A DNA stretch of 50,255 nt from a phage. The stretch is from sequence record PV636259.1. The stretch is one strand, 5' to 3'. The notes beneath the pieces are model-generated. The model ran no database searches and was not told the origin of the DNA. It saw only the letters and a list, made by a program, of their open reading frames with translations. The position numbers and the translations under genes are program-made. Of this stretch, positions 18,824-29,378 are shown in pieces. Positions within the stretch are counted from its first letter, which is position 1; each line of letters opens with the position of its first letter.

Positions 18824-19574
18824 TGGCGTTGCAACACAGTGGCGCTATCCTGAAATGAGCGAGCGCGCAATGTCGCGCTCCCTACAGGATGTTGCAGCCA
18901 AACTAACTGAAAAAATGCGTGACGAATTAAAGCCGATGAAATTTGATGCTACCGACGAAGAGATAGATCAGACAGAAAGGTCATTGCTTGATTACGTTGA
19001 ATCACTCATCGCTCCGATTATTGGTTCTCTATCATCCGTTGCGCTCACGATCTATAAATTCAACTCTAAGCAGTGGCTGCGTATCGCTCGCAATGCTGGA
19101 GGTAAGAAGAATCAAGCCGTGATGCTACTTGCCCTGATTGGTCCTGCCGCTGCCGAAAGCTGGTACTCAGGACAATATAATCTGTGGCGATCGCAGGTGA
19201 CTACTTCTATCAGGAAATTTGCTGCCAACATGGTTACTGATTTCACTGATAAACTTCGTGCTGCATCCGGTCAGGGTAAAAGCAAGGATTTTGTTGTTGA
19301 ACTTGCTAATGAGCGATTTGGTGTTTACCGGAATTGGGCCAAAAATAGAGCGTCGGGAATTGTTGGAACCTGGAACAGTAGACTAATGCGTCAGCGCATA
19401 AAAGACGCTGGAGTCTCTTACTATTTCTGGCGTGGGGTGATGGATTTACGTGAACGTGAAAAACATGTAAGATGGGAAGGTAAGCGCATAGCGGTAGATT
19501 CCGATCACGTATTCCCGGGTGAGGAATACAATTGCCGCTGTTGGGCTGTTCCAGACTTTTCTACAGGAGATTAA
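18813..19574 (+). CDS. Minor head / head morphogenesis protein (253 aa)
   Basis: Position directly after portal with overlapping start; typical siphophage gene order. Confidence 0.55.
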   Translation: MKINGVATQWRYPEMSERAMSRSLQDVAAKLTEKMRDELKPMKFDATDEEIDQTERSLLDYVESLIAPIIGSLSSVALTIYKFNSKQWLRIARNAGGKKNQAVMLLALIGPAAAESWYSGQYNLWRSQVTTSIRKFAANMVTDFTDKLRAASGQGKSKDFVVELANERFGVYRNWAKNRASGIVGTWNSRLMRQRIKDAGVSYYFWRGVMDLREREKHVRWEGKRIAVDSDHVFPGEEYNCRCWAVPDFSTGD

Positions 19575-19576
19575 AA

Positions 19577-20689
19577 ATGAAGGCAAAGCAAAGATTCGAT
19601 TCAGTAAAAATCAAGGCGCACTTTGATGATAACGGTTTTTTAGTTGACCGCCCAATAGTGGCGCGAATCGGCGCTCAGGTTTACAAAACGCCGCACGGCG
19701 ATCGAGTTGAGTTCCGTCCGGCGTCCGAAGTTTTCAAGCAAGATTCCTTGCAAAGTTTTGCAGGCAAGCCGATCACAGTCGGTCACGTAACGGTGACTCC
19801 CCAAAATGCTAAGGACGTTGTTGTAGGTTCGTGCGCTGGCGCTGGTATTGCTTCAGGTGTTGGAGTTGAAGTCCCTTTAAGCATTTACAGCGACTACGCG
19901 ATCAGCAAGGCTAAAGCAAAAGAAGCTGGTGAATTATCTGTTGGCTACACGTCAGTAGATATTGATAAACCGGGATGGGGTTCAAATGAGACTGGAGAAT
20001 ATATCTTCGAAGAGGATATGAAACAGGACGAAGCGCCACCTGAAGGCTGGGTGAAATTTGACGCGGTACAGACTAATATCAAGGTCAACCATATCGCACT
20101 TGTTTTCAAAGGTCGCGCGGGAATTGCTAAATTAAATCTTGATGCCGAACAGGAGTTCCCGTATGATAATAACGTTCAATTAACTAACGAGGACAAGCAA
20201 ATGAAAAAAATTAAGATCGACTCAGTTGATGTGGAAGTAACCGAAGACGTTGCGAACCATATCGAAAAATTAACCGCGCAGATTGCAACCATTCAGGGGA
20301 AAGCTGATGGCTTCGAAGCTGAGCGCGATGCGCTGAAGGTTAAGGTTGACTCTCTGCCGGAACTTGTGAAGGCTGAAGTAGAGAAGCAAAAAGCTGATGC
20401 CGCCGCACGCGCAGAAGTTACCGCAGTAGCAGAAACCGCAGGCGTCAAACATGATGGTCTTGATATCAAAGACGTCAAGATTGCCGTAGTTAAAGCCATG
20501 CTTGATAAAGATGTTAGTGAAAAATCAGACGCATATATCGACGCTATGTTTGATGTTGCTAAAGATTCTGATATCATGGCTATTCAGCGTAAAGCAGTAA
20601 AAGGCGACTCTATCGAAGGCGGTAAGCCGGAAGAGAAAAACGACGCCGCGCCTGTTACGCCAAATTCACGTTTAAGCAAAGTAATGTAA
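19577..20689 (+). CDS. Head scaffolding (possibly protease-scaffold) protein (370 aa)
   Basis: Position between minor head and capsid genes; long Ala/Lys/Glu-rich coiled-coil C-terminal half. Confidence 0.5.
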   Translation: MKAKQRFDSVKIKAHFDDNGFLVDRPIVARIGAQVYKTPHGDRVEFRPASEVFKQDSLQSFAGKPITVGHVTVTPQNAKDVVVGSCAGAGIASGVGVEVPLSIYSDYAISKAKAKEAGELSVGYTSVDIDKPGWGSNETGEYIFEEDMKQDEAPPEGWVKFDAVQTNIKVNHIALVFKGRAGIAKLNLDAEQEFPYDNNVQLTNEDKQMKKIKIDSVDVEVTEDVANHIEKLTAQIATIQGKADGFEAERDALKVKVDSLPELVKAEVEKQKADAAARAEVTAVAETAGVKHDGLDIKDVKIAVVKAMLDKDVSEKSDAYIDAMFDVAKDSDIMAIQRKAVKGDSIEGGKPEEKNDAAPVTPNSRLSKVM

Positions 20690-24222: not shown

Positions 24223-24658
24223 TTATCAGATTCGTAGATTTCAAGGCGAGATTGATGCGTGGATTAAGGCCGCTGAAAGCACGTTAGAACATGCCATTGA
24301 AATATTCGTAAGGGATGTTCACGACGCTCTTGTTAGCCGCTCCCCTGTTGATACAGGTCGATTCAAGGGTAACTGGCAGATAACTTTTAACGAAATCCCT
24401 AACCACGCATTAAACCGATACGATAAAACTGGCGGTGTCGTCAGAGGTGAGGAGCAGGCCAAAACTTATGGCATGTTCAGCCGTGGAGGTGCGATAACAT
24501 CAGTTCACTTTTCAAACATGTTGATTTATGCAAACGCTCTTGAGTACGGTCATTCACAGCAAGCGCCGAGCGGCGTTGTCGGTCTTGTGGCGTTAAGGCT
24601 GAGATCATATATGGCTGACGCAATCAAGCAGGCAAGGAGACAGCAAAATGCACTATGA
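24215..24658 (+). CDS. Tail completion-like protein (147 aa); GTG start inferred
   Basis: Track ORF 24119..24658 trimmed to the in-frame GTG 10 nt after GGAGGG; no in-frame ATG near the upstream stop. Confidence 0.4.
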   Translation: MANYQIRRFQGEIDAWIKAAESTLEHAIEIFVRDVHDALVSRSPVDTGRFKGNWQITFNEIPNHALNRYDKTGGVVRGEEQAKTYGMFSRGGAITSVHFSNMLIYANALEYGHSQQAPSGVVGLVALRLRSYMADAIKQARRQQNAL

Positions 24659-25046
24659 GTTATCAGCGGCGGCGCGAGCCGCTTTTCTATCAAAGTACAG
24701 AGACTTTCCTCACTACATGGAAAACAGAAATTTCACACCGCCGAAGGATGGCGGGATGTGGCTGAGGTTCAACTACATTGAAGGGGATACGCTTTATCTA
24801 TCCATTGACAGAAAGTGTAAATCTTACATCGCAATCGTTCAGATCGGCGTAGTGTTCCCTCCAGGCTCCGGCGTTGACGAAGCAAGATTGAAAGCAAAAG
24901 AGATTGCTGATTTTTTCAAAGATGGTAAAATGCTTAACGTTGGTTATATTTTCGAGGGTGCAATCGTGCATCAAATTGTTAAACATGAAAGCGGGTGGAT
25001 GATTCCGGTTCGCTTTACAGTACGAGTAGACACAAAGGAGACTTAA
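24648..25046 (+). CDS. Tail terminator-like protein (132 aa)
   Basis: Position immediately upstream of the major tail gene. Confidence 0.45.
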   Translation: MHYELSAAARAAFLSKYRDFPHYMENRNFTPPKDGGMWLRFNYIEGDTLYLSIDRKCKSYIAIVQIGVVFPPGSGVDEARLKAKEIADFFKDGKMLNVGYIFEGAIVHQIVKHESGWMIPVRFTVRVDTKET

Positions 25047-25048
25047 TT

Positions 25049-25717
25049 ATGCACTTACCAAATGGCGCACAAATTTTCGTGGAAACCTCTCGAGGGGTAG
25101 AGGTTGAGGCAACCGCTGTCACTAACGCAGAAAATCCTGTTGCTACAGTTGCATCTAAGGGTGACTTGGCAAAAGGTGATTACGTTATTGTAACTCAGTC
25201 AACTTGGGCAAAGATGGTTAGTCGAGTGCTAATTGTTACTGACGCTCAGGAAACAAGCATCACTCTTGCTGGAATTGACACCTCTGATACTCTTGTTTTC
25301 CCGGCTGGCGGCACAATGAGCTTCGCAAAAATTACTGGATGGACTGAGATCCCTTGCGTACAGGAGATTGGTCAGGACGGCGGTGAGCAGCAGTATTACA
25401 CTTATCAGTGTTTGTCCGACGATAAAGAGCAGCAGATCCCAACGTTTAAATCTGCGATCTCGCTAACGTACACTTTCGCGCACGAATTTGATAACCCGAT
25501 CTACCCTATTCTGCGTAAGCTGGATTCTTCCGGTCAGGTAACTGCGGTTCGGATGTATGTTCCAAAAGCGAACGAGATGCGCATGTGGGCTGGCATCTTG
25601 TCTTTTAACGACATTCCATCTACGCAAGTAAACGAAATGGAAACGGTACAACTCGCCGTATCCCTGAAAGGTGATTTTACTTTCGTCTCATCCACTCTGG
25701 CATCTCCAGATGCCTAA
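25049..25717 (+). CDS. Major tail (tube) protein (222 aa)
   Basis: Track ORF trimmed to the ATG after AAGGAG; position before chaperone and tape measure. Confidence 0.65.
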   Translation: MHLPNGAQIFVETSRGVEVEATAVTNAENPVATVASKGDLAKGDYVIVTQSTWAKMVSRVLIVTDAQETSITLAGIDTSDTLVFPAGGTMSFAKITGWTEIPCVQEIGQDGGEQQYYTYQCLSDDKEQQIPTFKSAISLTYTFAHEFDNPIYPILRKLDSSGQVTAVRMYVPKANEMRMWAGILSFNDIPSTQVNEMETVQLAVSLKGDFTFVSSTLASPDA

Positions 25718-25791
25718 ATCATATCCGCATGGGGGCTTGCGCCCCCTTCTTCATTTCTGTAAAATCATCGTATCAACTTTGCGCTCTTTGC

Positions 25792-25811
25792 TTTTAACAA
25801 AAAGTGCTATT
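25792..25811 (-). promoter_or_regulatory. Operator motif copy in reverse orientation (AATAGCACTTTTTGTTAAAA) directly upstream of the chaperone RBS
   Basis: Read as reverse complement of TTTTAACAAAAAGTGCTATT; followed on the plus strand by ACCAATCAGGAG and ATG. Confidence 0.5.
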
Positions 25812-25831
25812 AACCAATCAGGAGAAACATC

Positions 25832-26149
25832 ATGGCTAAATTCAATTTCGTGTTGGGCCAGCTTCCAGACTTCAAACTTCCGGTGACGTTCACCATGCCA
25901 AACGGCGAGGATGCAACTATTATTTTTACAGTGCGCCACCTTTCCAGTAAAGAAGTGCAAGATATGTATGCGAAGCAGGGCGAAATGAATGATAGCGATT
26001 TCATCACTAAGATCGCGTCAGGCTGGAATCTGGAAGAAGAATTTAACGAAGAGAATACGCGTAAACTGGTACAGTATTATCCTTCCGCAGCGTACAACCT
26101 GACGGCAACTTACATCAAGGCGCTTGCCGGACACCGCGCAAAAAACTAA
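25832..26149 (+). CDS. Tail assembly chaperone (G-like, 105 aa)
   Basis: Position immediately upstream of the tape measure; ends ...GCA AAA AAC TAA at a slippery heptamer. Confidence 0.7.
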   Translation: MAKFNFVLGQLPDFKLPVTFTMPNGEDATIIFTVRHLSSKEVQDMYAKQGEMNDSDFITKIASGWNLEEEFNEENTRKLVQYYPSAAYNLTATYIKALAGHRAKN

Positions 26150-26466
26150 AAAGGGCGGTTTATCTGTTATATCAGAAACCGCCGACAGAAGAGCAATTAC
26201 GATCGGTTGGCCTCAGTCTTTCTGACTATGAAGACGAGGAACCGGAAACGATAATCGGCGATACTGAAATGGTGAAGGCGTGGAATGTTTTTACGTCAAT
26301 GCTCACTCAGTGGAGAAGTTCAGGCGCTGGAGCTTATGGTCTTGACTATAATGTTTTGCCTATGTTGTTCAAAATCTATAAAATAGAAGATGAAGAACTG
26401 GCATTGCAGGACGTTAGAATCATGGAAGCGAAAGCGCTTGAAATGATTGCTAAGCAAAACAACTAA
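25832..26466 (+). CDS. Tail assembly chaperone GT-like fusion via programmed -1 ribosomal frameshift at A_AAA_AAC (26140..26146)
   Basis: The -1 frame is open from the slippery site through 26466 with no in-frame start codon before 26269, as in lambda G/GT. Confidence 0.55.
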
Positions 26467-26488
26467 GCCGCCGTTTGGCGGTTTTTTC
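26467..26488 (+). terminator. Terminator-like hairpin (GCCGCC GTTT GGCGG + T6) between chaperone and tape measure
   Basis: Read directly. Confidence 0.5.
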
Positions 26489-26504
26489 GTATATAGGGGG
26501 TTAT

Positions 26505-29378
26505 ATGGTTGATAAGGTAGCAGGTCTGTCGCTTGACGTTGATGTGTCAACAGTGCAGCGCGCCGTCAAGTCACTGAAAGAGTTTTCAAAGGCCAACGAC
26601 CAGGCCGCTGATTCTATGGGTTCTTTAATCAATGAGTCAGAGGTTGCAAAACAGAAGGCCAAAGAACACGCTGAACAACTCAGGCGCCAGAGAAAAGAGT
26701 ATGAGGCCGTGGAGAAGGCAATCGATCCTACAGTATCAAAAATGGAAAGGTTGAAGATTGCATCTCAGCAGCTTGATAAACTCTGGCAGCAGGGAGTCGT
26801 TCCAGATGAGACGTTTTTCCGTTTGGGTGAAATGCTGGATCTGCAAAACGCAAAACTTGCTCGCAGCCGGGCTATGCTTACGGAAGAAGGTCAGGCGGCA
26901 TTGCAGGAAGCGAAAGCAAAAGAGCAGGCGGCAGCACGAAGCAAGGCGTTCATGGATGCCCTGAATGGTCAAGTTAACGCGATCGGCAAGACTCATGCTG
27001 AATTGATGGAACTGAAAGCGGCTGAGCTTGGTTTATCGAAAGAAGCAGCACCACTAATCGCAAAACTTAAAGATCAAGGCCGGGCTATGAATGCAGCAGG
27101 TATTAGCGCCGGGGAATACAGGCAAGCAATGCGAATGCTTCCTGCACAGATTACCGACGTCGTTACATCTCTTGCGTCCGGCATGCCAGTTTGGATGGTT
27201 GCCATCCAGCAAGGCGGTCAAATCAAGGACTCGTTCGGCGGGATTGGTAATACGTTTAAAGTGTTGCTGAGTTATATTAATCCAGTCACAGCAGGTATTG
27301 GCGTTCTTGTTGGTTCGTTAGGTCTTCTGGCGAAAGCTGGTTATGACTCTTACAAGTCAATAACTGATATTCAGAATGCGCTTATTGAGACTGGCGGTTA
27401 TGCAGGTGTTACGGCTGAAGATCTTGATTCAGTGTCTAAAAAGATCGCGCAGACAAGTAACTCAACCATTGGGAGTATTCGCGATATTGTAACGGAGTTG
27501 GCGAGTTCTGGTAAGTACACCCGCGAGCAGATCCAGAACATCACTAAGGCTACCGCAGAGTGGTCAGCGTCAACAGGAAAATCAGCAAGTCAAATTATTT
27601 CTGAGTTCGACAAAATCGCAAGCGATCCGGTAAAAGGCCTGAAGAAGTTAAACGAGCAATATAATTTCCTTGAAAAAGGGCAGCTTACCTATATCGATAC
27701 ATTAAGCCGGACGAAAGGAGAAACTGAGGCTGTATCAGAGGCTACCAAACTATTCGCAGACGTAATGGAAAAGCGAATGAAGTCGATCGCGGATAACGCT
27801 ACTCCTCTGGAAAAGATGTGGAGCGATATTAAACAATGGGCTTCGGACGCGTGGGGATGGGTGGGTGATCATACACTCGGGGCGCTAAACCTGATTATCG
27901 ACGTTGTTCAGGGTACAGTGATTCAGGTTAAAATGATTCTTGCTAAGGGTGATGAGTATATCTCAAACTTTATCGCCTCAGCCATAAAGGCAACTCAGTC
28001 ACTGCCTGGAATGAGTAATTTCGGCGCTGATGTACTGAAGGAGCAGGAGAATATTGTAAAAAGTTCTCGCGACAACTACGATCAGTTAGCTTCAGAGCTT
28101 GACGCTATTAACGCTCGTGTAGAAAAAGGAGAGATGGGATACATTGAAGCAATGAGGCAGCGTCGCACTCTTGAAAAGCAGTACAGCGAGGAAACTAAGG
28201 AGGCAATAAGGAAAGAAGCAGAAGAGATCGAGAAGCGAAACCGAGAACGAAATAAGCAGTCGAAAATTGTACGCTCACCGACAGAGCAATTCGACAAGGA
28301 GTTAATTTCACTCAAGGCTCAACTTAAGGTATTGCAGGAGCACAAGGAGATCGGGCAAAAACTTTCCGCACAGAGAAAGGCGTTGTTTACAACTGAGGCT
28401 ACGATCGCTGTTCTTCGCGAAGCCAGCTCTAAGCGTCAGTTGTCTGCGGAAGAAAAAGCGTTGCTGGCAAGTCAGGAGAGAGTTATTGAGCTTGCAAAAC
28501 AGAAGGCCGAGATTGGCGATCAGATTGTTAAGCAACAACAGTTGAATGATCTTACCGATAAATCTCTGAAGTTTGTCAATGAGATGACAGCGGCGACAGA
28601 ACAGCTTAACGCGTCACGCGGTCTTAGCACGCGCGAAATGGAACGACAAGCGGAACTGGCTAAAATAACCACTGATTACATCAACTCTGGAGGTAGTGAG
28701 GGAGACGAAAAACTACAGAACATGATCAAGGCACAAAATGATTACTATGCTGCGGAAGATGCCAAGCGCGCTGACTGGTTAGCTGGTGCTGAAAGCGCAT
28801 TTGCAGATTACGGCGATTCTGCAATGGATATGTACGGCAACGTGTATGATATCGCGTCAAGTTCACTTAACGGAATGAGTGATATGATGACCCAATTCCT
28901 TACTACAGGTAAGGCAAATTTTGAGGACTTTGCGAAAAATATCATTAGCATGATTATCAAGATGATTGCTCAGATGGTAATCTTCAATACGATCTCAGGC
29001 ATGACGGGAGGTAAGACATGGAGTTTTGCAAGTGGATTGACCTCTAGCGCTTCTGCGGCATCACAGGCAACTCCTACGCCTGCCGTCTCTGGTTTTAGGT
29101 CTTTATCTTCAGGCGTTGCCGTTACCTCGCTTGCTGCCGCTGCGGGTAGTGTTGCAACCTCTGGATTTAACGCATCTAAATCCGCACCGAAGGCAGCGAA
29201 CCAGTCAGCAGGCGGGACGGTCGTTGATGTTAGGGGTATGGAGGTTAAAGTTGACAACGGTTCAGATCCGAGAGGGATTTCTCAGGGCGTAGAAATGATG
29301 TTCAAAAAAATGATTCGAGAGTCTTGTTCGCAGGGCGGTGAGGTTTACAATTACATTCAGGAAAAAACAGGAGGCTAA
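26505..29378 (+). CDS. Tail tape measure protein (957 aa)
   Basis: Length, coiled-coil-rich composition, hydrophobic Gly/Ala/Ser-rich C-terminal third; start set to the ATG after AGGGGG. Confidence 0.85.

Follow-up and report, generated by a model that had tools for sequence, protein, structure and literature searches.

The closest described counterparts of the locus considered here are the tail assembly genes of phages lambda and T1. In lambda, a pair of genes is flanked by those for the major tail and tape measure proteins, and a -1 shift near the end of the first, G, at the slip site G_GGA_AAG, gives a C-terminally extended fusion, GT. The G:GT ratio in that system is 30:1 (Levin 1993; Xu, Hendrix and Duda 2004, 2013, 2014, as summarized in PMC5009743). 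The T1 record (AY216660.1) carries a comparable pair, AAP49960.1 ('tape measure chaperone') and AAP50000.2, the second of which is encoded by a two-piece CDS at 18872..19506, annotated as 'tape measure chaperone, frameshift product' and placed beside the short chaperone CDS. This fusion entry is a curated prediction. Its 211 residues match exactly the fusion that we reconstructed from T1 DNA, with the junction ...HRAKK-LKRAVY..., and the T1 fusion is therefore joined in the same A-run as that described below. At the level of annotation, the frameshift site is thus already known, at the same bases in phage T1; our literature search, which did not take in the T1 genome paper, found no experimental proof of the fusion in T1-like phages.

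The locus analyzed here belongs to a T1-like phage of the genus Tunavirus, family Drexlerviridae, and is contained in a stretch of 50,255 nt (PV636259.1), referred to below as the window. All features discussed are on the plus strand. The chaperone region is 98.2% identical in DNA sequence to that of phage ADB-2 and 95.7% identical to the orthologous locus of T1, with which it shares GCA AAA AAC TAA, a downstream hairpin, products of 105 and 211 aa, and a flanking terminator; the few substitutions between the two include T/A at one residue of the T part. The likeness to lambda lies in the position of the pair between the major tail and tape measure genes and in a -1 shift near the end of G that would extend the product at its C terminus, and by analogy a low ratio of long to short product would be expected. 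However, the site is A_AAA_AAC with a stop directly after it, in place of G_GGA_AAG, and the Pfam families are Phage_TAC_4 and DUF1799, which are different from those of lambda gpG and gpT. No sequence-level homology to lambda was found in sequence and family comparisons.

Two frameshift sites of E. coli also invite comparison. The insA-insB' junction of IS1 has the identical heptamer, at which a low-level -1 shift gives a fusion protein in E. coli, but IS1 has no established downstream stimulator, whereas a well-placed candidate hairpin is present here, and the role of its shift is in transposase dosage rather than tail assembly (PMC4066793). The dnaX site resembles the present one in its A-rich heptamer, its decoding by a single tRNA-Lys, and the stem-loop a few nucleotides downstream (PMC5009743); it differs in ending with AAG (A_AAA_AAG), in being much more efficient, and in yielding a shorter product, whereas the shift here would yield a longer one. 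Taken as one account that covers the slip, the fusion, the hairpin, and the role in assembly, we consider it highly probable that ribosomes undergo a programmed -1 frameshift at this locus, as in the G/GT system of lambda.

Organization of the Locus

Gene G, which encodes the tail assembly (tape measure) chaperone as its standard translation product, extends from an ATG at 25832 to 26149 and specifies 105 aa. A Shine-Dalgarno sequence, AGGAG, can be read at 25820..25824, 7 nt 5' of the ATG, and a ribosome_binding_site is annotated at the homologous place in the T1 record. As an earlier note on this DNA had described, the gene ends GCA (26138-40) AAA (26141-43) AAC (26144-46) TAA (26147-49). 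The slippery heptamer A_AAA_AAC, at 26140..26146, is in the 0-frame phase (Lys-Asn) and takes in the final two sense codons of G. The range of 26138-26146 given earlier for the site contains the heptamer and also takes in the preceding GCA codon. The 0-frame TAA stop (26147..26149) lies immediately 3' of the heptamer and overlaps the first codon of the -1 frame, CTA (26146-26148).

The second ORF overlaps the end of G in the -1 frame and, in the neighborhood of this overlap, has neither its own start codon nor a Shine-Dalgarno sequence. Reading in the -1 frame is unbroken between 26065 and a TAA at 26464-66, giving an overlap with G of 85 nt, and the T extension occupies 26146..26466, with 106 codons plus TAA, so that the G-T fusion would comprise 211 aa. 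A count of 107 open codons to 26466, as first proposed, agrees with this if the re-read AAA is included, there being 106 sense codons past the heptamer. In the ORF listing of the window, the first ATG, GTG or TTG of this frame is at 26269, again as claimed beforehand. The +1 frame closes at 26225 and was rejected on that ground as an alternative reading frame.

Genomic Context and Protein Families

The G/T pair (25832..26466) is situated between the major tail tube protein gene, which ends at 25717, and the tape measure protein gene, which starts at 26505. The former (24995..25717) was identified from its match to PF08813 Phage_tail_3 (E=3e-70) and from the T1 annotation, which implies a later ATG start for it. 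The latter (26505..29378) matches PF06791 TMP_2 (E=1e-73) and PF09718, again in agreement with the T1 annotation, and is followed by a gene for a lambda-M-like minor tail protein (PF05939). The gene order is thus tail tube, G, T, tape measure, minor tail.

The G part belongs to Pfam PF08748 Phage_TAC_4 (E=5.7e-36; 123.9 bits against a cutoff of 21.1), and the T part, that is the -1 extension, to PF08809 DUF1799 (E=1.4e-11). The PHROG family 17368 models G and T as one protein: of the 213 positions of phrog_17368, G matches 1-107 and the T extension 108-212. Further PHROG matches are phrog_569 for the G part and phrog_680 for the T part. A sequence search of the PDB with the fused 211-aa product returned chance matches only, to proteasome subunits at E of about 0.08, and a search of NCBIfam found no family. 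The likeness to the conserved G/GT frameshift of long-tailed phages that the earlier note had drawn is borne out in gene position, overlap, phase, chaperone family, and conservation.

Terminator-like GC hairpins with T-runs are found on both sides of the pair, at 25731-25746, after the major tail gene, and at 26465..26484, where the T stop gives way to the tape measure gene. The latter resembles an intrinsic terminator and lies where the T1 record has a 'terminator, rho-independent'. By acting on the transcript, these flanking hairpins may set the relative amounts in which the tail tube protein, the chaperone, and the tape measure protein are made.

The Slippery Motif

A_AAA_AAC fits the consensus X_XXY_YYZ, in which both tRNAs are able to re-pair in the -1 frame. 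That a heptamer ending in AAC rather than the more common AAG can serve as a slippery sequence, as had been supposed for this site, is established by IS1, for which A_AAA_AAC is a proven -1 frameshift motif in E. coli (PMC4066793). It is much less shift-prone there than A_AAA_AAG (PMC5009743), and a low-efficiency motif would fit the need for little long product relative to short that the analogy with lambda implies.

The heptamer is the sole one in phase within gene G and the sole in-phase slippery motif of the overlap; other slip sites in the overlap were sought and rejected, there being no further in-phase heptamers or tetramers. The bare sequence AAAAAAC is not enriched in the window (19 copies against 14.2 +/- 4 expected). 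Of the codon positions in the structural genes, 0.29% have an X_XXY_YYZ heptamer in phase, and the chance of finding one in the 28-codon overlap is about 8%. Because of this chance level, the heptamer motif by itself is only suggestive, and its significance rests on the comparative evidence. Other in-phase heptamers in the structural genes are T_TTT_TTA at 19636-19642 (ORF 19532..20689) and T_TTT_TTC at 24911-24917 (ORF 24648..25046).

Comparative Evidence across the Drexlerviridae

Matches were obtained in 406 phage records. Junctions were taken from 16 annotated phage records together with 33 contigs of IMG/VR; after removal of duplicates, 40 unique sequences were left, spanning the Tunavirinae, Tempevirinae, Kyungwonvirus, Webervirus, DTL-like, and Sf12-like (Sf12, e4/1c) phages, with DNA identities down to about 66% and protein identities in the T part down to 52%. 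Upstream of the stop codon, variability among these 40 sequences peaks at position 3 of the G-frame codons, at 27.8 bits compared with 13.7 and 8.6 at the other two positions; downstream of the stop, it peaks at position 3 of the -1 frame, at 26.5 bits compared with 12.2 and 7.7. Read in terms of these substitution patterns, coding passes at the stop codon from the G frame into the -1 frame. Among relatives about 55-70% identical, the product of the -1 frame is conserved as K(K/G)LKRAVYL.YQ..PT, beginning at the heptamer and thus far ahead of any start codon. On the 5' side of the heptamer, the -1 frame is not conserved and is unrelated between lineages, and in some relatives it contains a stop as near as 40 nt to the G stop (an overlap down to 40 nt). 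The shift is therefore confined to the last 13 codons of G.

These patterns bear directly on the possibility that T is made as a separate protein, either from the ATG at 26269 (65 aa) or by re-initiation after termination of G, with no fusion being formed. A separate downstream ORF is indeed annotated in many GenBank records, for example as a CDS of 198 or 270 nt, and most relatives have Met at the position equivalent to 26269. However, KpV522 and LF82-12 have no Met there, the annotated starts vary by record (either ATG or a TTG, which this phage has as TTA), and reading of the sequence 5' of 26269 found no Shine-Dalgarno sequence. Moreover, the 41 start-less codons from 26146 to 26268 show conservation at the protein level, the variable positions being the third ones of the -1 frame, and G and T make up a single protein in phrog_17368. 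Separate synthesis of T is in our view very improbable, and translation of the -1 frame as a continuation of G is preferred.

The junction itself is strikingly constant. The sequence G(C/T)A AAA AAC TAA is invariant in 33 of the 40 unique junctions, and the remaining 7 have A_AAA_G or A_AAG_G at the same Lys codon. Among the 33 heptamer sequences, the synonyms AAG and AAT are never seen, whereas nearby wobble positions have entropies of 1.6-2.0 bits. The TAA stop is present in all 40, with zero entropy at its columns. Homopolymer runs are error-prone on some sequencing platforms, and the frame break could on that basis be supposed to be a sequencing error, or the mark of a pseudogene, with an in-frame ORF of 211 codons as the real gene. 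However, the same break and the same TAA recur at every one of the 40 unique junctions, from independently sequenced genomes, and this explanation, to which we assign practically no probability, is refuted by the comparative data.

The four bases CTAA at 26146-26149 are likewise unchanged in all 40 unique relatives, though a change to AAC TGA, with CTG in the -1 frame, would be synonymous in both frames. In E. coli, CTG is the common Leu codon and CTA a rare one. The invariance suggests that selection may act on the identity of the stop codon or on the first codon of the -1 frame.

Two groups of phages depart from the heptamer. In the Webervirus KpV522, a Klebsiella phage, G ends GCA AAA GTC TAA (L015:1516-1527), an A_AAA tetramer without the heptamer, and the -1 extension (RRAVYL...) is still conserved despite the presence of the tetramer only. 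In the Sf12-like phages (Shigella phage Sf12 and the e4/1c-like group; L045-L049:693-704), G ends GCA AAG GTC TAA, which is an A_AAG tetramer. Both tetramers have precedents: few tetramers shift as readily as A_AAG in E. coli, and A_AAA too is found at work in IS elements (Sharma et al. 2014, PMC4066793). As far as the aligned junctions indicate, the -1 transition is held at one codon throughout the family by way of three motif variants.

Ribosomal or Transcriptional Slippage

The same products could in principle arise by stuttering of RNA polymerase on the six A residues, with the addition of one A and synthesis of ...AKK-LKR... by standard translation. In favor of this view are the homopolymeric A run at the site and the identity of the expected product with the annotated T1 fusion; transcriptional slippage is, moreover, known in some IS elements and phages (PMC5009743). 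Six A is a short run, however, and relatives make the same -1 transition at the same codon where the run has shrunk to four A (GCAAAAGTC) or to three (GCAAAGGTC). For RNA polymerase to slip efficiently in E. coli, a run must be about 8-9 residues long or more. Sites with four or three A cannot support polymerase stutter and are classic tRNA-Lys slip motifs, and transcriptional slippage is not generalizable to the relatives with GCAAAGGTC. The conserved spacing to the downstream hairpin also suits a ribosomal mechanism. We infer that slippage is ribosomal rather than transcriptional, and see very little likelihood of the latter.

The alternative that lies closest to this account, and is properly a variant of it, is that tRNA-Lys alone slips on A_AAA at 26140-26143 before Asn is decoded, so that AAC, and with it the full heptamer, is dispensable. 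An A_AAR at this codon is the sole element common to all of the Drexlerviridae variants, with GTC replacing AAC in the Sf12-like and Webervirus phages, and the T1 annotators set the junction as AKK-LKR. Z_ZZN tetramers, A_AAG especially, cause ribosomes of E. coli to shift by -1, and IS elements make use of them, but heptamers are generally far more efficient than tetramers in that organism and are preferred in IS elements, 403 versus 87 (PMC4066793). Furthermore, AAC never gives way to the synonymous AAT in the 33 heptamer sequences, which suggests selection on the second codon too. Judged from their junctions, the tetramer-bearing lineages show that slippage of tRNA-Lys alone would suffice in them; as an explanation for a site with the full heptamer, we consider it unlikely but deserving of real weight.

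The Downstream Hairpin and Other Stimulators

A search for a downstream stimulatory structure, which the earlier note had proposed as a check, found a candidate hairpin at 26154..26183, confined to some subfamilies. Both MFE and centroid predictions pair GGCGGUU-(UA)-UCUG with CAGA-AACCGCC; in its full form, GGCGGUU(UA)UCUG-UUAUAU-CAGAAACCGCC, the hairpin starts 7 nt past the heptamer and has 11 bp, a 2-nt bulge, and a 6-nt loop. To control for the conserved peptide encoded by this region, the stability of the hairpin was compared with that of 3000 sequences recoded synonymously for the same -1 frame peptide, with codons sampled as the phage itself uses them. The native sequence folds at -16.1 kcal/mol compared with a mean of -6.3 for the recodings, and is stabler than 99.8% of them, only 0.2% folding as stably.

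The Tunavirinae and Tempevirinae retain the hairpin, with stabilities of -15 to -19.6 kcal/mol. In LF82-12, it has been rebuilt with changes on both sides of three pairs, though the peptide differs there; these are the only double-sided changes, all three from this one sequence, so that covariation as assessed by RNAalifold and pair counting is weak. The hairpin is absent or much weaker in the DTL-like and Sf12-like phages, KpV522, and ESP2949-1, and several such lineages keep the heptamer; in the Sf12/e4/1c-like group, the downstream fold reaches only -3 to -6 kcal/mol. It is plausible, from these predicted folds, that the hairpin is a lineage-specific stimulator and not a universal part of the signal.

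Whereas dnaX has an upstream Shine-Dalgarno element, inspection by eye and by column entropy found no conserved stimulator of this kind (GGAG/AGGA, 8-15 nt upstream) at the present site. The sole G-rich codon upstream is a Gly GGN, the wobble base of which, 12 nt upstream, varies freely among the 40 sequences. A search of Rfam with 25700..26600 gave no match at E <= 1.

The elements of the signal are unevenly distributed. Both heptamer and hairpin are found in the Tunavirinae and Tempevirinae, the heptamer only in the DTL-like phages, and neither in the Sf12-like and Webervirus phages. A possible reading of this pattern, which we offer tentatively and would stop short of favoring, is that the universal core is the A_AAR Lys codon two codons before the invariant TAA, with the heptamer and the hairpin being lineage-specific add-ons. 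If this were so, the GT:G ratio could be set differently in each lineage, and the core event could be a slip by tRNA-Lys on its own, to which TAA/CTA would contribute in some manner yet undescribed.

Proposed Mechanism

In the programmed frameshift that we propose, most ribosomes would translate G and terminate at the TAA at 26147-49, giving the 105-aa tape measure chaperone. A minority would slip back by one base on A_AAA_AAC at 26140..26146, with tRNA-Lys passing from one AAA to the other and tRNA-Asn, where it had already entered the A site, re-pairing from AAC to AAA. The slipped ribosomes would then read CTA AAA AGG GCG... in the -1 frame as far as 26466, giving the 211-aa G-T fusion. Slippage after Asn decoding, with both tRNAs moving, would leave the junction AKN-LKR within the peptide ...GHRAKNLKRAVY..., and slippage of tRNA-Lys alone, before Asn decoding, the junction AKK-LKR. 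In this lineage, the hairpin at 26154..26183 probably raises the rate of slippage.

By analogy with lambda, the fusion would be produced at a low ratio to G and would be needed for tail assembly. The G part of both proteins is expected, on the same analogy, to coat the tape measure protein, with the rare T domain recruiting the major tail protein.

Annotation of G and T in T1-like Phages

Relative to the T1 annotation, the additions made here are evidence from the whole family that places the site exactly, the description of three variants of the slip motif, a test of the hairpin that is controlled for coding, and the recognition that the joined CDS is missing from most database records of this family. 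Their value is mainly practical, in that PV636259.1 should carry a joined CDS as in the T1 record. The phages also provide a natural series of slip sites, comprising heptamer plus hairpin, heptamer alone, and tetramer alone, which could serve the study of how the ratio of chaperone forms is tuned.

The annotation of G and T is inconsistent across T1-like genomes, with many GenBank and RefSeq records giving two separate ORFs or omitting T. RefSeq labels both G and T as 'tail length tape measure protein', other records have 'hypothetical protein', and T is called from differing starts, as ORFs of 198 nt or 270 nt. The record of vB_SsoS_008 has no annotation for G, and its matching region is longer by 21 nt. 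Finally, Drexlerviridae chaperone loci very similar to those of coliphages occur in 19 records that bear the name 'Campylobacter phage' and in a few listed as 'Pseudomonas phage' (e.g. MG065665.1, MG065637.1, ON843697.1, PP134917.1); the host assignments of these records look doubtful, or the samples may have been contaminated.
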